Shown here: positions 1,386 through 9,899 of the stretch, piece after piece
How the letters are laid out: every line of letters starts with the position of its first letter
Numbering within the stretch: the first letter of the stretch is position 1
Assembly (NCBI GenBank): GCA_049414405.1
Contig: JBMSAQ010000031.1
Location: 1 to 9,989, forward strand
Direction: 5' to 3'
Origin: Candidatus Nanopusillus sp.
GTDB lineage: Archaea > Nanobdellota > Nanobdellia > Nanobdellales > Nanobdellaceae
Length of the DNA: 9,989 nucleotides
Notes under the pieces: generated by a model
Databases searched by the model: none
What the model was told of the DNA's origin: nothing
What the model saw: only the letters and a program-made list of their open reading frames with translations
Made by a program: the position numbers and the translations under genes

Positions 1386-2018
1386 ATGTTTGAAAACAAC
1401 TACATAATAGATATAATTAGAGATGCTGAAGGTTATAAGTTTGTTGTAAGAGATATCTCTACTAATGTAGTTAAAACTTTTAATAACAGTAATTATGTAA
1501 TACAACAAACATTAAGAGACGTATCTAATCTAATAGAGGCTTCTCATTTGGTACTTTATGGTAGAGTACGTAATTACCGAGATGGAAATTTTATTTTTGA
1601 TCTATTTAAGAAAGTAATATTTGTTATATTACTAGAGCAAAATCTATCTTATTTAGCAAATGCTAATGGTTATAGAATACATTATCCAGACTTTTCTTAT
1701 TATGCAGCTACTTTGTATAAATTCTATAAAGTATTTGTTAACCCAAACACTACACTAAACCTTCAAGAGTTTATTTTAATTATCGGTCCACTATTAACTA
1801 GAGTAAATATTAACCTTACTAGTAAAGAATTAGTTAACTTATTTGATATATTTGCATTAAATTATTATAAAGCTATAGACTATATATACAAGATGCGTTT
1901 AGGTTTAATATCTACTTCTCACACCCAAACGTCAACATTTACTCAAAATAATACAATAAGTAGGGATAATTTTACTAAAAAAGGCATATCTCGCAATAAT
2001 AAACCAAGACTTTACTAA
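1386..2018 (+). CDS. Hypothetical protein (210 aa), tightly coupled upstream partner of the recombinase; possible distant member of the MGY-paralog family
   Basis: The ORF starts with ATG. TTTTTAAAAA at 1356-1365 is centred about 25 nt upstream. Its stop is 1 nt before the recombinase ATG. By eye it resembles ORFs 6501..7058 and 7503..8138 in an N-terminal YII-x-hydrophobic-R strand, the segment FKKVIFVILL versus FIAFVFLLKV, and YKFYKVFVNPNTTL versus YQLAYYLKDNDPNIAL. Confidence 0.75.
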   Translation: MFENNYIIDIIRDAEGYKFVVRDISTNVVKTFNNSNYVIQQTLRDVSNLIEASHLVLYGRVRNYRDGNFIFDLFKKVIFVILLEQNLSYLANANGYRIHYPDFSYYAATLYKFYKVFVNPNTTLNLQEFILIIGPLLTRVNINLTSKELVNLFDIFALNYYKAIDYIYKMRLGLISTSHTQTSTFTQNNTISRDNFTKKGISRNNKPRLY

Positions 2019-2019
2019 A

Positions 2020-2598
2020 ATGGATAGAGTACCTAAACATTGGGTAAAATTTATAGGAGGAAAACCCCCAACATTTGAAGAATTATACCATATAATTAGA
2101 TCTAATTTAGAGCAATATTATAATCTAGTAAGATTACCAAACCCTAAAAGGCAACATATTAAAAGATTTATGTATTATGCTATAGCTTACTTACAAATAA
2201 CTAACGGGTTAAGAGCTTCAGAGGCAATTTATGCTTTAAAAGAATTCTTAACAAAAGGTAATAAAAAGTTTACTATATTAGCAGAAAAATCAAATAAGGA
2301 AAGATGGGTTATTATATTTGAACCTTTAGTATCAATGGCACCAGTATTAAGAACATATTTAGACACTTTAAAAAATATTAACAGAGGGAATTATAAAGAA
2401 TTCTTAAGGTATAATATGGGAATAAACCCACATACATTAAGGTATGTATTCATAGCAAAAGCCCTTAAAATGATTGGAGTTGAAGATACTATGGTATATA
2501 TGGGTTATGCGTCACCAAAACATTTAATAGAATATTATAGAATAATTAGATCTAAAGAAAATTTAGAAGAATTTATAAATAAGATCATAAATTATTAA
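2020..2598 (+). CDS. Tyrosine recombinase / integrase, catalytic domain only (192 aa)
   Basis: The motifs occur in the canonical order and spacing. These are NGLRASE (Arg65), AEKSNKERWVI (Lys in the beta-hairpin), HTLRY (His138-x-x-Arg141), and MGYASPKHLIEYY. In the last, Tyr163 sits at the usual His/Trp position and the nucleophile Tyr173 lies 10 residues later. By eye this compares with the XerA/XerCD signatures GLRxSE, GKGxKER, HxLRH and LGHxxxxxTxxY. Confidence 0.85.
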   Translation: MDRVPKHWVKFIGGKPPTFEELYHIIRSNLEQYYNLVRLPNPKRQHIKRFMYYAIAYLQITNGLRASEAIYALKEFLTKGNKKFTILAEKSNKERWVIIFEPLVSMAPVLRTYLDTLKNINRGNYKEFLRYNMGINPHTLRYVFIAKALKMIGVEDTMVYMGYASPKHLIEYYRIIRSKENLEEFINKIINY

Positions 2599-2602
2599 TA
2601 GT

Positions 2603-2995
2603 ATGGGTATATTCTTTAAAATAAAAAATCTATTTTCTAATAACAAAAATGAAAAGCTCTATTTACATGTAAGAATAGAAGGTTTTGAAGATGTATTAGT
2701 AAAAGTTTTAGAAGATGAAAAAGTTAAAGAATTTTGGAATGATGTAAAAAAATTATATGGAAAAAATGTGGATGAAAGAGAATTATTTAAAGTTTTTAAG
2801 TTTTATTTATCCGTAATTATAACCATAGATGTTTTAGAAAGAACTAAAACATTTATGAGAATATCAAACTTATTAGATAACAGATATAGTTATGCTTTTT
2901 ATAAAGAACAATTTAATGGAAAATTAGATGAAAAGAAATTTAAAGAATTAGTAGAAAAGATATGGGATTACCATAGCTATATAGCATTAAGATAA
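2603..2995 (+). CDS. Hypothetical protein (130 aa), third gene of the recombinase operon
   Basis: The ATG lies 4 nt after the recombinase stop. The protein is K/E-rich and helical. The gene is followed by a T7 run. Confidence 0.75.
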   Translation: MGIFFKIKNLFSNNKNEKLYLHVRIEGFEDVLVKVLEDEKVKEFWNDVKKLYGKNVDERELFKVFKFYLSVIITIDVLERTKTFMRISNLLDNRYSYAFYKEQFNGKLDEKKFKELVEKIWDYHSYIALR

Positions 2996-3002
2996 TTTTT
3001 TT
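2996..3002 (+). terminator. Oligo-T tract directly after the stop codon (archaeal-type terminator candidate)
   Basis: TAA at 2993-2995 is followed immediately by TTTTTTT. The tract lies in a 35-nt convergent gap. Confidence 0.4.
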
Positions 3003-3030
3003 AGTTTTATATAAAAATATTTTAAATAAA

Positions 3031-3342
3031 TTAAGGAATTTCTACACCTATATTTTCGTTAACCTCCTTTACTACATCCCACACTTTCAAATTCTTAACA
3101 TATATTTTTTTAGGTTCTTTAGTTTTATCATCTACTAATATCACAATTGTTCCTGATACTAATTTTCCTCTTCCAACAACCTCTTCTATTTTATATCCTA
3201 ATCTATTTATATTTCTTGATATTTCTTTTTTGTATCTATCTATTAATTCCTTATCTTTTGCTGCTATTGCTGCATATAGACCTGTAACAAAACCTCTACC
3301 CGTTGGGTTTACCGGTCTTAGTAATTCTACATAGACTTCCAT
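3031..3342 (-). CDS. Hypothetical small alpha/beta protein (103 aa)
   Basis: The ORF starts with ATG. TTTTATAAA at 3364-3372 is centred about 26 nt upstream of the ATG at 3342. No family was recognised. Confidence 0.75.
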   Translation of the reverse strand: MEVYVELLRPVNPTGRGFVTGLYAAIAAKDKELIDRYKKEISRNINRLGYKIEEVVGRGKLVSGTIVILVDDKTKEPKKIYVKNLKVWDVVKEVNENIGVEIP

Positions 3343-3393
3343 AATATTGTTTTAAAAAATAAGTTTTATAAATACTTCTAATGGTTTATAAAA

Positions 3394-3418
3394 GTATTAG
3401 AAATACAATTTCTAATAC
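3394..3418. promoter_or_regulatory. Perfect 25-bp palindrome (11-bp arms, 3-bp spacer): operator candidate
   Basis: GTATTAGAAAT-ACA-ATTTCTAATAC lies between the divergent TATA boxes of genes 3342(-) and 3478(+). A related half-site, ATACTTCTAAT, lies at 3372-3382. Confidence 0.55.
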
Positions 3419-3477
3419 AAAAATTATAAAATGTTTCTTATTATAAAGCTTTTAAATTTTAAGGTATATATTTTATA

Positions 3478-3972
3478 ATGGACCGATTTAATTATGATGA
3501 CTATATAGACACATACCCACCATACGAATATGTATCAAGATATATAAAGGATACATCTGTTTTTGCTTTTATTAGAAGAGATCTTCAACTAGCAAAAAAA
3601 CATATTGAAAAAATTTATCCAATATTAGAATTAATTGAACAATATGCACCTTATTCATCTTATGTACCATACAATAGAGAAATTTATATTTTATTAGATA
3701 ATATAAAAGCACATATTGAAAAATTAAGAGATATTATTGGAAATACAAGATCAAAAGTAAGAAAAATTTCTAGAGAACAAGTTCTTAGTTATTATTTATT
3801 TAGAATTCAAACAGAAATACTTGATGGAATAGAATCTGAAATAGGTGTTCTTCAACATAAGATAAAAAACAATGTTAATGTTTCTAGAGACTTAATTTTA
3901 TTTGTAAGAGAAACTACTAGAAAACTTGATGAATTTGAACGCTTTATAAATGAAATTCAAATGCATATATAA
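3478..3972 (+). CDS. Hypothetical helical / coiled-coil-type protein (164 aa)
   Basis: The ORF starts with ATG. TTTAAATT at 3451-3458 is centred about 24 nt upstream. No family was recognised. Confidence 0.75.
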   Translation: MDRFNYDDYIDTYPPYEYVSRYIKDTSVFAFIRRDLQLAKKHIEKIYPILELIEQYAPYSSYVPYNREIYILLDNIKAHIEKLRDIIGNTRSKVRKISREQVLSYYLFRIQTEILDGIESEIGVLQHKIKNNVNVSRDLILFVRETTRKLDEFERFINEIQMHI

Positions 3973-4024
3973 TTTTTAAGAAAAAGTTATTAAATTTATA
4001 AGAAATACCAAAAATAATTTATAT

Positions 4025-4636
4025 ATGTTAGGCTATATTGATCCAAAAAGTATGAGTACACCAGAAGATAGAATTATAGATAAGCTTGTAATTAAGTATT
4101 ATAATGCTTATAGAAATTTAATAAATTTATCTAAACAGTATAATGGGGTTGTACCTGCAAAAATAGTTCAAAATACTTTAATGGAAATATTTAGATGGGA
4201 AATAATAGAAAGATTTAGAGTACCATTTAGTGTAGAGGGGGATAATGCCGTAATCTTATATCAACCAATTGTATATAAAATTGGTTTCATACCATTTGTT
4301 GGCAATACTTTAAGTAAATTCTTACAAAATACTATATTTCTAATATTTGATAAATTCATATATAGTCCTGAAGAATTTGATGATACATATTACTTTAAAA
4401 TAATTGATTTTATGAAAAGATTATCCATGTATAAACAAAATATTAATAGATCTTACCTAAGAGCTTTCTTATTTAATAATTCAATATCATATTTTGAATA
4501 TAGAACGACCCTTACCTTAAGGGAAGATATTGGATACTTTACATATTTTAAACCATTAGAACCAGATGAAGCAGGTATTAGATTGGCAATAGTTGATCTA
4601 TATTATAGTGTTAAAGATTTAGCTGGGCATAAATAG
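4025..4636 (+). CDS. Hypothetical protein (203 aa)
   Basis: The ORF starts with ATG. TTTATAAG at 3995-4002 is centred about 26 nt upstream. No family was recognised. Confidence 0.75.
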   Translation: MLGYIDPKSMSTPEDRIIDKLVIKYYNAYRNLINLSKQYNGVVPAKIVQNTLMEIFRWEIIERFRVPFSVEGDNAVILYQPIVYKIGFIPFVGNTLSKFLQNTIFLIFDKFIYSPEEFDDTYYFKIIDFMKRLSMYKQNINRSYLRAFLFNNSISYFEYRTTLTLREDIGYFTYFKPLEPDEAGIRLAIVDLYYSVKDLAGHK

Positions 4637-4664
4637 CTTAAGATATTTCTAAAAGAATTCTACT

Positions 4665-4682
4665 ATAGTGCCCCCCACTATT
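4665..4682. promoter_or_regulatory. Short hairpin ATAGTG-CCCCC-CACTAT containing the conserved motif CCCACTATT
   Basis: A 6-bp stem (4665-4670 with 4676-4681) encloses a C-rich loop. CCCACTATT (4674-4682) recurs at 5891-5899, at the equivalent position upstream of the second inactive recombinase paralog. CCACTA also occurs at 1337-1342, upstream of the recombinase operon. Confidence 0.4.
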
Positions 4683-4763
4683 ACTAAACTTGCAAAAAAT
4701 TTAAGGCTCACATATAATAGGTCGAACATTATCCTTTTAAATTTTATATAAAATAGATAATAT

Positions 4764-5303
4764 ATGAAACTACAAATATCAGAAAGGTATTTGTTTTTTG
4801 ATATTCCCAAATTTGTAAAAGAATCACTAATAAATCATTATAGAGATGTGCTTATCTTTAAAGAATCTGTACCAGCTACTTATATAAGATTTTTAGTTTA
4901 TCATGCAATAGCTTACTTTCAATATCTAAATAGTTTTAATACAAAAACTGCAGTAAATCTATATAAGGAATATATCTTATCCGACGGAAAAATTAAAACT
5001 TTTAAATATAAAGAATTGGAAATTCCATTGAATTTTGATGAATTATTGGATGAAGTAAGTAAATATTTAATGAATTATAAAGATATAGTGCAGGGGGTTA
5101 CTACTATTGCCTATACTTCTCACTTAAGATATGGTCATAGAATTCAGCCTACATATATAACTCTCTATAACTTATTAGATGCTTTTAATAAAATTGGGTT
5201 TGATGGATTAGCAGCCCTAAAAAGACATTGGAGAATAATTGATAAGGAGTTTATTCCATATTTGCTAAAAAACTTAAAAAATAATTCTATAAATAAGACA
5301 TGA
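4764..5303 (+). CDS. Tyrosine-recombinase-like paralog with catalytic residues replaced (179 aa)
   Basis: It aligns by eye with ORF 2020..2598. Examples are YIRFLVYHAIAYFQYLNSFNTKTAVNLYKEY against IKRFMYYAIAYLQITNGLRASEAIYALKEF, and HLRYGHRIQPTYITLYNLLDAFNKIGFDG against FLRYNMGINPHTLRYVFIAKALKMIGVED. Arg-I is replaced by Asn, and the HxxR motif by TxxT. TTTTAAAT lies about 25 nt upstream of the ATG. Confidence 0.8.
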   Translation: MKLQISERYLFFDIPKFVKESLINHYRDVLIFKESVPATYIRFLVYHAIAYFQYLNSFNTKTAVNLYKEYILSDGKIKTFKYKELEIPLNFDELLDEVSKYLMNYKDIVQGVTTIAYTSHLRYGHRIQPTYITLYNLLDAFNKIGFDGLAALKRHWRIIDKEFIPYLLKNLKNNSINKT

Positions 5304-5854
5304 GTGAAGAAAAATACACATATCTAGAAAAGATAATTTTAATATTATTGTATCTTTATAATGATAAAATCAGCATTGATAGACTTCATAAAATAGTTTT
5401 TTTAGCTTCTTTAGATCTTAAAGGATTAAAAGAAAAGATGAGTTTTAGACCAAGAATGTATAAGGATATATTTTTTGATCCTGCTGTAGCTGAAGCACTT
5501 GAATTCTTACAAGTTAATAAATTAATAGAAATAAATAATAACATTGTTATATTAACTAAAAATGGTGAAGAAGCAGCCCAATTTCTATTATCAGAACTTT
5601 CTTATAAAGAAAAAGATATATTAGAAGAAGTTTTAGATTTATTTAATGGTACTACAGATGATGAAATTTTAGCAATATTTTACTTTAAATTAGATGACAT
5701 CCTAAAAATAATAAAACCCCTATACAGAATAATTAAAAATAGGAAAAAATTAGCTGTAAGTTTATATAGAAAAGGAAAAATTTCAATTGGTGCTGCTTCA
5801 GAGATTGCTGGCATGAATATAAAAGATTTTATGCATCTATTACATAAGATATAA
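5300..5854 (+). CDS. Two-domain DNA-binding protein: N-terminal wHTH (YwgA/Panacea-like by eye) plus C-terminal UPF0175-type HTH
   Basis: The C-terminus KLAVSLYRKGKISIGAASEIAGMNIKDFMHLLHKI matches the UPF0175 signature (LELYRxGKISLGKAAELAGMSxxEFxxLL). The N-terminal part (RLHKIVFLASLD...FRPRMYKDIFFDPAVAEALEFLQVNKLIE) resembles the KLQKLxY...YGPxSxEL...L pattern of YwgA/DUF4065-like wHTH domains. An ATGA overlap joins it to the upstream gene. Confidence 0.8.
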   Translation: MSEEKYTYLEKIILILLYLYNDKISIDRLHKIVFLASLDLKGLKEKMSFRPRMYKDIFFDPAVAEALEFLQVNKLIEINNNIVILTKNGEEAAQFLLSELSYKEKDILEEVLDLFNGTTDDEILAIFYFKLDDILKIIKPLYRIIKNRKKLAVSLYRKGKISIGAASEIAGMNIKDFMHLLHKI

Positions 5855-5890
5855 CCTAAAAGTCGTTAGTATAAATAAAGCTTGTAGAAG

Positions 5891-5899
5891 CCCACTATT
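5891..5899. promoter_or_regulatory. Second copy of the conserved intergenic motif CCCACTATT
   Basis: The same 9-mer lies at 4674-4682. In both cases it is preceded by CTAAAAG and followed by CCTTTTAWA (the TATA box) and then the ATG of an inactive recombinase paralog. Confidence 0.4.
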
Positions 5900-5962
5900 T
5901 TAACAAATCTGTTTCTATACTTTTTTATTTCCTTTTATAAGATTTTTTCACATAGTTATTTT

Positions 5963-6493
5963 ATGAAAATAAAATTAAAACCCGATAAATTAAAGACCCC
6001 TATCGAAAGCAAATTAAAAAAAGCTTTAGAAGAAGCTAAAGATATAAAAAGTAAGATATATTTATCAATAGCTTATTTTCAATACATAAATAAGCTTTCA
6101 ACTAATAAAGCAATTATTTTATTTAAAGAATATGTTTTATCTGATGGAAAAAAAGCATCTTATCCTTTTGGAATATATCTTCTAAAAGATAATAAAATTG
6201 TAACAAAATATATAGAAATTCCTTTAAAAATTGATGAATTTTTATTAAAATTTATGCCAGAAATTATGGTACACAAAGATTTAGTAGCTAAGGTAAACAG
6301 AAGTGTTTATCGTGAATTTATAAAAACCCATTTAAAGATAAATACCTCAGACATAACTGCTTATGTACTTTATAAAATGATTACCGACATAAATATTTAT
6401 AATTTGATATCTTTAAGAAAACATTGGTCTCTATTTAATAGAAATATAATACCTTTCCTATTAAAAAACAAAAACTATCAAAATTTAACCTAG
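5963..6493 (+). CDS. Second tyrosine-recombinase-like paralog with catalytic residues replaced (176 aa)
   Basis: It is a paralog of 4764..5303. Shared segments include IAYFQY(I/L)N, (I/V)LSDGK, EIPL, L(K/R)(R/K)HW and IP(Y/F)LLKN. Arg-I is replaced by Ser, HxxR by SxxT, and the terminal Tyr-equivalent (IPY) by Phe (IPF). TTTTATAAG is centred about 25 nt upstream of the ATG. Confidence 0.8.
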   Translation: MKIKLKPDKLKTPIESKLKKALEEAKDIKSKIYLSIAYFQYINKLSTNKAIILFKEYVLSDGKKASYPFGIYLLKDNKIVTKYIEIPLKIDEFLLKFMPEIMVHKDLVAKVNRSVYREFIKTHLKINTSDITAYVLYKMITDINIYNLISLRKHWSLFNRNIIPFLLKNKNYQNLT

Positions 6494-6500
6494 GTTAACC

Positions 6501-7058
6501 TTACTTTGAAAAATACTTACTTAATTCATTATTGAAATTTAAGAAGGCCATTCTCACTATATTTGGATTTGATCTAAATGTTATATTATTTAAGATTCCA
6601 AAGAATTTTGGGAATAATTCTGGATCTAAAATAACTTCATAGTATATTTCTGGTAAAGCAATATTTGGGTCATTATCTTTTAAATAATAAGCTAGCTGAT
6701 ATGCTATAGAAATATTTTCCTTTTTTATAGACATTGCTTTTATAAGAGGTAATTTATCCAGACCTTTCTTAAGAATATAATCTATAAATAATTTAACTTT
6801 AAGTAAAAATACAAATGCTATAAATTTATTGAAATCTTTATTCCAATCTATTCCTGAATCATCTAATATAGGCTCAATTAATTTATTTAAACCCCTTCTC
6901 ACATTAGAATCTACTTCTTTTATACTTAAAATTTTTATAAAATTTTGGCTTTCTGAAGATATTATATATGCTATATAATCTGATGCTTTTATAGAGCCTT
7001 TACCCTCTCTTATTATATATATGTCATTTGTTAATTTGTTTATTATTGTATACCCCAT
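6501..7058 (-). CDS. Hypothetical protein, MGY-paralog family member (185 aa)
   Basis: It is a paralog of 7503..8138. Shared segments are MGYTIINKL..IYIIREG versus MGYIIAKLFGNELVVFRAG, FIAFVFLLKVKL versus LFGFLLFVKLSI, ISIAYQLAYYL versus DEIAYNLTHYFL, and VRMAFLNF versus VEMAYTLF. TTTATAAA at 7082-7089 is centred about 27 nt upstream of the ATG at 7058. Confidence 0.8.
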   Translation of the reverse strand: MGYTIINKLTNDIYIIREGKGSIKASDYIAYIISSESQNFIKILSIKEVDSNVRRGLNKLIEPILDDSGIDWNKDFNKFIAFVFLLKVKLFIDYILKKGLDKLPLIKAMSIKKENISIAYQLAYYLKDNDPNIALPEIYYEVILDPELFPKFFGILNNITFRSNPNIVRMAFLNFNNELSKYFSK

Positions 7059-7091: not shown

Positions 7092-7116
7092 TGAGGGGGG
7101 GACGGGTATCCCCTCA
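7092..7116. other. GC-rich hairpin TGAGGGG / CCCCTCA (7-bp stem, 11-nt loop) within a G7 tract
   Basis: 7092-7098 is the exact reverse complement of 7110-7116. Alternatively, the G tract GAGGGGGG (7093-7100) is the exact complement of CCCCCCTC (7150-7157). Confidence 0.4.
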
Positions 7117-7137
7117 ACCCACACATTGTATGGTTTT

Positions 7138-7470
7138 TCATGACCCCCACCCCCCTCTAAAGATCAGATAGATTTGCAAATTTTTCTTTTCAAATCTATC
7201 TTTTCCGGACACGGGGGGTACCATCTCCCTAAAGCAGATAGATTTGATGAGATTTAGTTTTGATAGATAACTTTTGTATCTTTTTGGTGATAATAAAATT
7301 TTATAAAGAAAATCATTTTGATTTATAAACTTTTCGTTTCGTACCGCGTTTGTGGTGGTTACACGATCTAAAATTTGGGGGTTTCTGAAAATTGCGACCC
7401 CTCTGGTAACACAACTCAGTAGTAACTCATAACTTTTAAATCTGCAAGCATAAACATAATTGCCATACAT
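7138..7470 (-). CDS. Doubtful ORF overlapping the GC-rich island (110 aa from Met8; the maximal ORF extends to 7491)
   Basis: In favour of coding: a long open frame in AT-rich DNA, and CTTATAAAT at 7493-7501 centred about 27 nt upstream of the ATG at 7470. Against: G/C-ending and rare codons (CGT, CGA, GCG, CCC, ACC) far above the neighbours, three Cys residues, and DNA repeats read in different frames and on both strands. Confidence 0.35.
   Translation of the reverse strand: MYGNYVYACRFKSYELLLSCVTRGVAIFRNPQILDRVTTTNAVRNEKFINQNDFLYKILLSPKRYKSYLSKLNLIKSICFREMVPPVSGKDRFEKKNLQIYLIFRGGWGS
7142..7270. repeat. Iteron-like cluster: CAGATAGATTTG twice in direct orientation, an inverted 11-mer, a degenerate fourth copy, each associated with a G/C-string
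   Basis: The exact 12-mer lies at 7165-7176 and 7235-7246, 70 bp apart. Each copy is preceded by a C-rich tract plus CTAAAG. The inverted copy CAAATCTATCT lies at 7191-7201 and is followed by GGGGGG at 7213-7218. A partial copy, GATAGAT, lies at 7262-7268. Read on the appropriate strand, all three full copies have the form CAAATCTATCT-N7-11-GGG(G). Confidence 0.6.
7166..7201. repeat. 11-bp perfect inverted repeat AGATAGATTTG / CAAATCTATCT with a 14-nt T-rich spacer; extendable by outer C6:G6 pairing
   Basis: 7166-7176 is the reverse complement of 7191-7201. CCCCCC (7150-7155) can pair with GGGGGG (7213-7218), and ACCCCC (7143-7148) with GGGGGT (7214-7219). This gives an imperfect hairpin or cruciform of about 80 nt. 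Confidence 0.6.
7350..7437 (+). ncRNA. Tentative small structured RNA (nested GC hairpin); strand and ends uncertain
   Basis: ATTTATAAAC at 7321-7330 would place a plus-strand start near 7350. The inner stem is GGGGT (7378-7382) paired with ACCCC (7397-7401), with a 14-nt loop. It is nested in GTTAC (7358-7362) paired with GTAAC (7406-7410). A T4 run lies at 7433-7436. TATA-like octamers are common in this AT-rich DNA, so the promoter evidence is weak. Confidence 0.2.
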
Positions 7471-7502
7471 AATAAAAAAATTATATTTCATCCTTATAAA
7501 TA

Positions 7503-8138
7503 TTATTTAGATTTATTAATAGATTGACTAAACAATGTATATGCCATTTCTACAGCCTCTTTATTTAAGTCTTTTTTCTGTGCTAAACTTATATTTAAGC
7601 TTTCTTTAAGCTTTTTATAATAATAAGTAAACTTATCTTTATTTTTTAATTTATCTAATATATTATTGGAAAAGCTAATTTTATAGTCTAATTTATTTAA
7701 GAAATAATGGGTTAAATTATATGCAATTTCATCTTCAAAACCCACTATTAATTGAGATAATTCTGTTAAATGATTACTATACATAGATGAAATCATAGTT
7801 TTAATTGATAATTTTACAAATAAAAGAAAACCAAATAATTTATATGCTAAGTCTTCACCACCACTTGTTTTTTCAGCTATATTTTGTGTTAAAAGCTCAT
7901 GTTTTTTTATTACTGCTTTTTCTAATTTTTTAACTAATATAAGTTTTATTCCGACTTTATTTATTTCTTCAATAGATATTGGAGTTTCTTCTTCTTTAGA
8001 TTCATTCTCAAGTAATTCTAAAAAAGGTTCGTCTTTTTTATAGATATAGAAAATAATATCTGTATTAAGATCGTCTATCTCTCCAGCCCTAAATACTACT
8101 AATTCATTACCAAATAATTTAGCTATAATATACCCCAT
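7503..8138 (-). CDS. Hypothetical protein, MGY-paralog family member (211 aa)
   Basis: It is a paralog of 6501..7058 (see that entry). Its ATG overlaps the 3' end of the upstream gene by 16 nt. Confidence 0.8.
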   Translation of the reverse strand: MGYIIAKLFGNELVVFRAGEIDDLNTDIIFYIYKKDEPFLELLENESKEEETPISIEEINKVGIKLILVKKLEKAVIKKHELLTQNIAEKTSGGEDLAYKLFGFLLFVKLSIKTMISSMYSNHLTELSQLIVGFEDEIAYNLTHYFLNKLDYKISFSNNILDKLKNKDKFTYYYKKLKESLNISLAQKKDLNKEAVEMAYTLFSQSINKSK

Positions 8139-9122: not shown

Positions 9123-9899
9123 ATGGCAGTAACAAGAAAAGATATATTAAATGATTTAGAATTAATTAAAAAAGGATTGCAGGAAATAGAATTTTACTTA
9201 AGGAATAATGTCACTGATGATAATGAAATTATTGAAAAGGGAATTAATGGTGTTATAGATTACATGAAAAAGATATTAAAAGAAATAGTAAATACACGTG
9301 CAGTAAGCTATTCTCAAATATTAGAAGATGCAAAAAAGAGAGGTTTAGAAAAGGAATTTAGAGCAGCATATAGTTTATTAAGGCAAACAAACTTTATAAA
9401 CTATGATAAACAAAATAAGTTAATAATCATTGGTAATAGAACAAAATATCTACTGAAATTATTTACGGATTCAAAATCAATAAAAAGCCAAAAAGAAAAA
9501 CAAGAAAAACCTGAAGCATTAGATCAAAAAAAGATAGATGAAATATATAAATGGGTTTTAGATCAAATTGATAAACATAACTGGATAGACATTAAAATAA
9601 TAAATACAGAATTTGAAGGATATCAAAAAGAAATTATAGAAGCTATTAATAAGATAATTGCTGAAGGTAAAGGTAAACTAGTAGATGGAAAATATTTATA
9701 TAAAGCTGATGGCGAAAAACCAGTAAAAAGTATAGATACATCTAAAGTTAAAAGAATAAAAGAATTAAAAGATCAAATAGAAACTTTAGAAAGAAAAATT
9801 CGAGTGGGTAAATCTATAGAATTATCAAAAGAAGAATTACAAAAATTAGAAGAAGAAAAGAAAAAGCTTAAAGAAGAATTAAAGAAATTAGAAAAGTGA
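9123..9899 (+). CDS. Hypothetical protein with wHTH-like segments and a K/E-rich coiled-coil C-terminus (258 aa)
   Basis: The ATG lies 2 nt after the upstream stop. The segments VSYSQILEDAKKRGLEKEFRAAYSLLRQTNFINY and IYKWVLDQIDKHNWIDIKIINTEF...IIEAINKIIAEGKGKLVDGKYLYK look like winged-helix units. The last 60 aa or so are heptad-like (KELKDQIETLERKI...LEEEKKKLKEELKKLEK). Confidence 0.8.
   Translation: MAVTRKDILNDLELIKKGLQEIEFYLRNNVTDDNEIIEKGINGVIDYMKKILKEIVNTRAVSYSQILEDAKKRGLEKEFRAAYSLLRQTNFINYDKQNKLIIIGNRTKYLLKLFTDSKSIKSQKEKQEKPEALDQKKIDEIYKWVLDQIDKHNWIDIKIINTEFEGYQKEIIEAINKIIAEGKGKLVDGKYLYKADGEKPVKSIDTSKVKRIKELKDQIETLERKIRVGKSIELSKEELQKLEEEKKKLKEELKKLEK

Follow-up and report, generated by a model that had tools for sequence, protein, structure and literature searches.

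The 9,989-nt stretch of DNA analyzed here (the window; contig JBMSAQ010000031.1, labelled Candidatus Nanopusillus sp.) encodes three homologous proteins of tyrosine recombinase ancestry. One of these, Int (open reading frame (ORF) 2020-2598), is an apparently active small tyrosine integrase whose active site looks complete. The other two, referred to here as parA (ORF 4764-5303) and parB (ORF 5963-6493), have lost the catalytic residues and are proteins maintained by purifying selection; almost certainly they are integrase-derived proteins that have been selected in a non-catalytic state. All three ORFs are present where an earlier note on this DNA had placed them. The use to which the two dead paralogs are put is a more tentative matter, the reading favored among several being that they bind DNA without cleaving it, as partners or regulators of the integrase.

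The window, with a G+C content of ~24%, has the gene content and gene order of Nanoarchaeotal virus 1 (NAV1; MN056826.1, 35.6 kb), the virus first described as infecting Nanoarchaeota, whose host is an obligate ectosymbiont; 14 of the window ORFs have collinear NAV1 counterparts at 30-83% amino-acid identity. Identical sequence is seen on hot-spring metagenome contigs as well as on a contig labelled Candidatus Nanopusillus sp., and the int gene is carried by a 113-kb Nanopusillus contig (locus tags ACO2ON_03785-03820). On these sequence grounds, the NAV1-collinear genes together with the Nanopusillus labels, the window is assigned to a NAV1-like virus or provirus of Nanoarchaeota (Nanopusillus). 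In a scan of GTDB genomes, the sole species genome with a family member was a Nanopusillus metagenome-assembled genome, the contig of which is itself virus-like; the scan, which returned this contig alone, revealed neither a provirus junction nor an att site.

The affiliation of Int is clearest from its viral relatives. With the NAV1 “viral integrase” it shares 83% identity, and it matches the PHROG integrase families phrog_9208 (E 1.4e-13, residues 47-176) and phrog_1 (E 0.0013). Searches with tblastn retrieve the integrases of STSV1, STSV2, SMV1-4, ATV, ATV2, and ATSV at 25-33% identity, with E values down to 4e-10, and comparison of a 16-sequence Int family with six integrases of the Bicaudaviridae by hhalign (probability 98.7%, E 1.6e-16) brings R, K, H-x-x-R, and Y into register. 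Residues R65, K90/K93, H138, R141, Y163, and Y172 are invariant among the 16 Int homologs and align with R/K/H/R/H/Y of the Bicaudaviridae enzymes. The full R-K-H-x-x-R-(Y)-Y layout that the earlier note had read within 192 aa is upheld by these comparisons, with one deviation from the canonical arrangement in that Tyr163 replaces the usual His/Trp. The spacing of 9 residues between Y163 and Y172 equals that of G-H...Y in the Bicaudaviridae enzymes, a match that makes Y172 the likely nucleophile. ORF 2020 is indeed small, as the label “mini” recombinase used in the note implied, but its size is not unusual, the STSV1 and STSV2 integrases having ~163-183 aa.

General-purpose libraries recognize Int faintly or not at all. 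The Pfam profile PF00589 scores 15.4 bits, below its cut-off of 27.1, neither ORF 2020 by itself nor its family profile matched any PDB sequence, and a scan of IMG/VR gave no confirmed relatives. An AlphaFold2 (AF2) model of Int reached a predicted local distance difference test score (pLDDT) of 82.9; in a Foldseek search of the PDB its top and only recombinase match was the integrase 3nkh (probability 0.99), but at E 0.023 and a template modeling (TM) score of 0.46. An integrase-profile match and a catalytic residue set complete except for Tyr at the His/Trp position were both found for ORF 2020.

Homology of parA and parB to Int, as the earlier note had claimed, is evident in pairwise comparisons by BLASTP (Int with parA, E 1e-6; Int with parB, E 1e-10; parA with parB, E 1e-26) and in the alignment of the Int family with a paralog family of 119 sequences by hhalign (probability 98.5%, E 3.5e-15, 141 columns). 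Structure prediction leads to the same relationship. An AF2 model of parA, built from an alignment without any integrase sequences, has a pLDDT of 90.2 and shows the same helix order and β-hairpin as the Int model. The best fold neighbors of this model in BFVD are the NAV1 orthologs of both paralogs (E 1.9e-18 and 7.5e-11); the NAV1 integrase is found at E 4.8e-5 and TM 0.65, and the nearest non-self viral folds are tyrosine recombinases, with the Sputnik virophage integrase V10 (E 0.023, probability 1.0), several VLF-1 proteins, and nudivirus integrases at greater distance.

Other routes to the superfamily are less direct. Among library hidden Markov models, phrog_9208 matches 4 of the 119 paralog-family members (best E 1.1e-4) and PF00589 none, the window paralogs not being detected directly; a direct profile comparison of the paralogs with the Bicaudaviridae integrases is weak (E 0.0016, probability 16%). 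The link of the paralogs to recombinases appears solid but is routed through the virus's own integrase. The confirmation of the recombinase fold that the earlier note had called for is accordingly divided, as the Int-family profile and BFVD provide it and PF00589 and the Foldseek search of the PDB do not. The shared motifs listed there also hold in part: (F/H)LRY and IG(V/F)(E/D) are common to Int and parA only, with parB reading FIKT and INIY. By ancestry and fold, both ORFs belong with the tyrosine recombinases.

Common ancestry does not extend to the active site. In the alignments, the first catalytic arginine (Arg-I) is replaced by Asn in parA and Ser in parB, and the His and second arginine (Arg-II) of H-x-x-R by Thr/Thr and Ser/Thr, respectively, just as had been read from the window alone, and the erased active site stays erased across the 119 family members (table). 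The catalytic hairpin Lys has no confident placement in the paralogs. At the C-terminus two alignments can be made, and the choice between them decides the equivalence of the Tyr. In an alignment anchored on the Bicaudaviridae enzymes, the G-H/G-Y position lies opposite a near-invariant His155 (H113/Y6 of 119), and the nucleophile column holds Y166 in parA and F in parB (family Y60/F42/other 17 of 119); in a family-only MAFFT alignment, the G-Y loop is deleted and Y172-Y173 stand opposite the near-invariant H155-W156. The anchored version fits the predicted helix breaks better, and it is in this version, not in the other, that the Tyr equivalent of parB is the Phe reported earlier. Under neither alignment is the nucleophile conserved in the paralog family. 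With no conserved nucleophile and with three transition-state residues lost, the tyrosine recombinase reaction is excluded for the paralogs; the catalytic R, H-x-x-R, Y set was not found in ORFs 4764 and 5963, which should not be filed as recombinases.

The residues that have taken the place of the catalytic set are themselves retained (S in 100, T in 100, and H in 113 of the 119 sequences), and an S-D-I-T motif, an H-W pair, YFQY.N, and YILSDG are strongly conserved in the family. Such conservation of the replacement motifs indicates a new constraint instead of decay. It is also what would be seen if the proteins were still enzymes operating through a rewired active site, for example one using the near-invariant H155, W156, Y51/Y54, and K106, and the Tyr that parA has at the nucleophile column in one alignment would suit this explanation as well. 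A surviving catalytic role of this kind is nonetheless very improbable: the three transition-state residues are gone in >85% of members, the Tyr column is divided between Y60 and F42 of 119, and the Y, Q, and N of YFQY.N are common to Int and the Bicaudaviridae integrases and so look structural.

That the paralogs are maintained proteins and not decaying pseudogenes, another claim of the earlier note, is supported by gene order, by integrity, and by substitution patterns. The three genes int, parA, and parB occur in the same order in 9/9 NAV1-like contigs spanning the whole region, a count that refers to retrieved loci, shorter contigs being cut by their ends. Among 104 paralog copies located by tblastn, some of them in loci that duplicate the same sequence, 103 are uninterrupted. 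Median ratios of nonsynonymous to synonymous substitution (dN/dS; Nei-Gojobori, non-redundant coding sequences) are 0.225 for parA (23 sequences), 0.23 for parB (11), 0.31 for a single-copy subfamily described below (52), and 0.13 for Int; with synonymous sites near saturation in this AT-rich genome the values are rough, yet all are far below 1. The test of dN/dS across homologs that had been suggested thus returned purifying selection (0.22-0.31), and the scenario of frameshifts and neutral evolution was not seen. Between the window and NAV1, ORF 4764 is 62% and ORF 5963 66% identical, placing both among the better-conserved genes, and orthologs at 57-71% identity remain full length and syntenic. 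Decaying pseudogenes or chance ORFs would account for the loss of catalytic residues and for nothing further; in view of the syntenic full-length orthologs, the 103 intact copies, the low dN/dS, and a pLDDT of 90, this explanation is rejected as having next to no probability.

The two paralogs belong to a wider family in which loss of the catalytic residues is the rule. A third, larger subfamily (~191 aa, ~70 clusters) has also lost them and is single-copy in related elements, which have further NAV1-like genes in common. In two of them an intact 211-aa integrase (R/K/H/R/Y) is encoded as well, 3.6-4.4 kb off. Identity is ~43% between parA and the single-copy subfamily and 35% between parA and parB. 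When 1.84 billion representative proteins were searched exhaustively with the family profile, only 14 matched: members of the paralog family, fragments of such members, a single repetitive protein judged spurious, and NAV1-group integrases of two kinds (E 1.7e-11 and 3.5e-7). The family appears to be confined to the NAV1 virus group, with the viral integrases as its nearest active relatives, and in the simplest history a viral integrase would have been duplicated and the copy inactivated once, in the ancestor of the group, with the duplication to parA and parB coming later, in the NAV1 lineage. In one locus (L011:4837-9277, also L012), a single-copy dead paralog and relatives of window ORFs 2603 and 3031 lie beside cellular-type genes, namely a class II aminoacyl-tRNA synthetase, an AsnC regulator, and a restriction-modification enzyme, a setting that points to an element, or the remnant of one, integrated into the chromosome of a member of the Nanoarchaeota; the L011 contig carries neither a tRNA nor an integrase.

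How a recombinase fold may serve a virus once its chemistry is gone is a question on which charge, structure, and genomic setting all bear. Tyrosine recombinases act as tetramers in which half the sites are active at a time, and in this family the terminal helices mediate protomer contacts. All paralog groups are basic like Int (pI 9.25-9.7; ORF 5963 has a net charge of +17 and pI 9.8) and keep the whole fold including the terminal helices, from which DNA binding without cleavage, alongside Int, is inferred. The reading favored here, with less than even confidence, is that the paralogs serve the integrase as DNA-binding partners or regulators that do not cleave; it is preferred because of the tetrameric architecture with half the sites active, the retained fold, the constant co-residence with int in the NAV1 lineage, and a precedent in bracoviruses. 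In this role the paralogs would bind DNA without cutting it and act together with the single active Int, perhaps as silent subunits that occupy half-sites of the recombination synapse and give specificity or directionality, or perhaps by restraining Int or its sites. A more demanding form of the proposal makes them obligatory silent subunits of a heteromeric integrase, each paralog reading one half-site, so that parA and parB would specify two partner att sites, only Int-bound strands would be exchanged, and the Holliday junction would be left for the Hjc-type resolvase of relatives, or for host enzymes, to finish. This form is improbable, and to our knowledge such a “half-dead” tyrosine recombinase synapse has not been described for any virus.

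A number of observations weigh against a partnership with Int. The catalytic arginines that have been lost normally also hold DNA phosphate. A distance of 2-3 kb separates the paralog genes from int; they seem to have promoters of their own and do not form an operon with it. Their local associations differ, parA being linked with a UPF0175-domain gene, and parB, like the single-copy forms, with another conserved gene that is convergent. At 90% clustering, the paralog family has 102 clusters versus 24 for the integrase, and many contigs with a single-copy paralog show no integrase within several kb, most of them being too short to decide. Moreover, a Foldseek search of the PDB with the paralog model gave nothing significant, the integrase 3nkh ranking 8-10 at E ~3.6.

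Much of this would fit independent DNA-binding regulators or architectural proteins, concerned with transcription, a replication origin, or genome organization and without a tie to recombination. Their own conserved promoter-like blocks and separation from the int operon, the coupling of parA to the UPF0175-domain protein, the viral TBP in the neighborhood in relatives, and a diversity greater than that of the integrase are all in favor, as is the presence among the nearest folds of VLF-1, which in baculoviruses is a precedent for a role in very-late transcription; dead DUF3504 domains of animals, too, have been proposed as transcriptional regulators (PMC13465315). No conserved candidate operator was found beside the genes, however, with the motif CCCACTATT failing a comparative test, and strict co-residence with int in NAV1-like genomes fits a joint role equally. 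Somewhat unlikely when taken by itself, an independent regulatory or architectural role is still almost as likely as the role of integrase partner, below which it is ranked slightly.

A use of the recombinase fold away from DNA, in a structural, virion, or host-interaction protein, has a parallel in the Tyr-less VLF-1b paralogs found in bracovirus virions (PMC3649998) and would agree with the lack of library matches hinting at function. It is considered rather unlikely, as the proteins are strongly basic like Int and their genes lie in a nucleic-acid module and not beside the large structural genes upstream. In relatives, this module includes TBP (E 3.6e-27), an Hjc-type resolvase (30 bits versus a 21-bit cut-off; 72-82% conserved among relatives), and TnpB.

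The arrangement of the module itself is summarized in the table. Other genes fill the intervals of 2.2 kb and 0.66 kb between the three homologous genes, which are spread over 4.5 kb. Each is preceded, within ~35 nt of its ATG, by an AT-rich block conserved in relatives; of the well-spaced promoters that the earlier note had assigned to these genes, this much can be retained, the blocks being compatible with separate archaeal promoters.

Table. Features of the window (coordinates in nt of the window) and catalytic columns of the paralog alignment (family counts of 119 sequences)
Feature	Coordinates	Strand	Remarks
Gene upstream of int	1386..2018	+	1 nt apart from int; adjoins int in all relatives including distant ones (L015, L032, L093, L005); convergent with int in L089
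Int	2020..2598	+	192-aa tyrosine integrase, catalytic domain only; R65, K90, H138, R141, Y163 (His/Trp position), Y172
Candidate parA promoter	4728..4763	+	AT-rich block conserved in relatives, TTTAAA..TTTATATAAA; putative, upstream alignment by eye
parA	4764..5303	+	179 aa, dead integrase paralog; N59 (Arg-I), T130 (His), T133 (Arg-II); ortholog of NAV1 NV1_08
UPF0175-domain gene	5300..5854	+	overlaps parA stop by 4 nt; UPF0175 at C-terminus, Pfam E 3.3e-10; after parA in every NAV1-like relative
Candidate parB promoter	5928..5962	+	AT-rich block conserved in relatives, TT[TA]ATAAG ~27 nt before ATG; putative
parB	5963..6493	+	176 aa, dead paralog; S (Arg-I), S (His), T (Arg-II), F at Tyr column; ortholog of NAV1 NV1_14
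Gene convergent with parB	6501..7058	-	conserved, 7 nt from parB
Arg-I column (Int R65)			ORF 4764 N59; ORF 5963 S; family S56, G22, R17, N11, K9
His column (Int H138)			ORF 4764 T130; ORF 5963 S; family S100, T15, Q4
Arg-II column (Int R141)			ORF 4764 T133; ORF 5963 T; family T100, L9, P6

Gene content between the three genes varies among relatives. TBP and Hjc-like Holliday-junction resolvase genes lie between int and parA in nearly all NAV1-like relatives, and together with TnpB they are present in the int/paralog region of NAV1; the window is without all three. The comparison of 2603-4636 with L007:990-2434 shows the absence of the TBP and Hjc-like genes from the window virus, and neither is found in ~24 kb of its lineage (L001, L002). 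ORF 2603-2995 stands in their place in the window and is present as two tandem copies in L011/L012. Just past the right end of the window (L002:10332-11804), after ORF 9123-9899, a 490-aa protein with a BrxL-type ATPase domain is encoded, conserved in NAV1 and possibly a replication or packaging ATPase.

Two minus-strand ORFs to the right of parB, 6501-7058 and 7503-8138, both start MGY.I..L and align collinearly at 24% identity, weakly at E 0.055, and are possibly a second pair of diverged paralogs. In L043, L089, and L090, the single-copy dead recombinase faces a convergent gene like ORF 7503-8138, just as parB faces ORF 6501. Between them, the minus-strand ORF 7138-7491 (117 aa) lies in the sole G+C-richer stretch (0.33) and is called as a gene in some assemblies only; its NAV1 match is split over two frames, and relatives show non-triplet indels, yet nucleotide-identical blocks, so that the segment may be non-coding or partly coding.

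Two candidate DNA sites put forward in the earlier note did not withstand comparison with relatives. The sequence CCCACTATT, considered as a shared operator, has 5 matches within one mismatch versus 2 expected, and 8/200 shuffles were as good. Of its copies, the one at 4674 falls within what remains of a small minus-strand ORF, of which the segment “LVI(I/V)GGT” is protein-conserved in NAV1; the one at 5891 represents the final unit of a CCCAC-headed repeat array, with a period of ~26 nt, that is seen in relatives; and a third is inside ORF 7503-8138. The repeats at 7165-7246, proposed as iterons, are deleted in most relatives.

The CCCAC array has a setting of its own. In most relatives, the UPF0175-domain gene and parB are separated by a TnpB (IS605 OrfB) gene, after which come 4-8 direct repeats of ~26 nt that start with (G)CCCAC, with a consensus of roughly GCCCACGATAACAGAAATTA... 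(L023:7417-7551, L015:9680-9812, L005:16006-16113). Across 15 related loci, arrays of 4-8 units are found upstream of parB only where tnpB is present, the tnpB-carrying L093 having a single unit; the window has no tnpB and a single unit left (5888-5899). The array could be part of a transposon right end or guide-RNA region, or an iteron set.

Two further non-coding elements are conserved. A G/C-rich, long-range hairpin at 7094-7157, with arms of ~10-14 bp and a conserved loop ...CATTGTATGA.TTTTTCAGGT, lies between ORF 7138-7491 and the promoter of ORF 6501-7058, both on the minus strand. It is kept in 9 relatives with compensatory changes (e.g. L015:10947-11025 and L023:8680-8762), the G-run and C-run arms being swapped in L023, and is a possible structured RNA or DNA element without an Rfam match. 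Upstream of the operon of ORF 1386 and int, the non-coding segment 1224-1340 is far better conserved than the flanking proteins and contains four direct WTTNTGCY motifs and the hairpins GCCC-NTCG-GGGC and CCCC-TAATA-GGGG, making it a candidate regulatory site, small RNA, or attachment site. No Rfam families and no tRNA genes were found in the window, and a tRNA scan of 17 related loci gave one doubtful call of undetermined type.

An active parent and its dead copies in one genome of the 35-kb class, accompanied by >100 diverged homologs, provide a compact natural system. The question it opens is what role the recombinase fold can have without catalysis, whether in site choice, directionality, inhibition, or a new DNA-binding function. 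A fold and an origin can also be assigned to two NAV1 genes that are “hypothetical” and among the better-conserved of that virus, and the integrase module becomes a place to look for the basis of virus persistence in a host that is an obligate ectosymbiont.

Among known systems, the closest for the active enzyme are the “MJ0770-like” integrases of the Bicaudaviridae, large spindle-shaped viruses of Crenarchaeota (STSV1, STSV2, SMV1-4, ATV, ATSV), of which Int is a member-level relative and similarly small; these enzymes have the usual His (G-H), where the NAV1-type Int has Tyr (G-Y163). For the dead paralogs, tblastn found no relatives in a collection of phages and archaeal viruses that included the Bicaudaviridae. 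Their direct orthologs, in the same gene order, are NV1_08 (ORF 4764) and NV1_14 (ORF 5963) of NAV1, annotated as hypothetical. In the literature searched, no description was found of parA, parB, or these orthologs, nor any report of dead tyrosine recombinases retained by selection in archaeal or bacterial viruses.

Cooperation among several tyrosine recombinase paralogs, or their encoding by one element, is familiar from XerC/XerD and from the recombinase in trio (RIT) elements. In the Xer heterotetramer only one pair is active at a time. XerC/XerD and the RIT partners all keep their catalytic residues, however, and RIT genes are adjacent; the trio described here, with its genes 2.2 kb and 0.66 kb apart and two of the three dead, is not a RIT element.

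Retention of catalytically dead recombinases is itself a known phenomenon, with precedents in eukaryotic viruses and in eukaryotic hosts. The VLF-1/Int families of baculoviruses, nudiviruses, and bracoviruses are likewise virus-encoded tyrosine recombinase paralogs, some with the catalytic Tyr and required for excision, others without it. In bracoviruses, the vlf-1 and int-1 paralogs are both needed for excision, and Tyr-less family members are retained, expressed, and virion-associated (PMC3649998). These families are an unrelated sequence lineage of 300-700 aa with eukaryotic hosts, whereas parA and parB are smaller and have lost the whole R-H-R set, not the Tyr alone. The DUF3504 domains, domesticated from Cryptons and found in ZMYM2/3/4 and QRICH1, are conserved without the R-H-R-Y tetrad and have been proposed to be DNA-binding or regulatory modules (PMC13465315). 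The likeness is functional and evolutionary only, the DUF3504 profile (PF12012) having no Pfam match in the window proteins or the 119 family members. DUF3504 domains belong to eukaryotic host genes in which they are fused to other domains, whereas parA and parB are stand-alone proteins, encoded by a virus beside their active parent.

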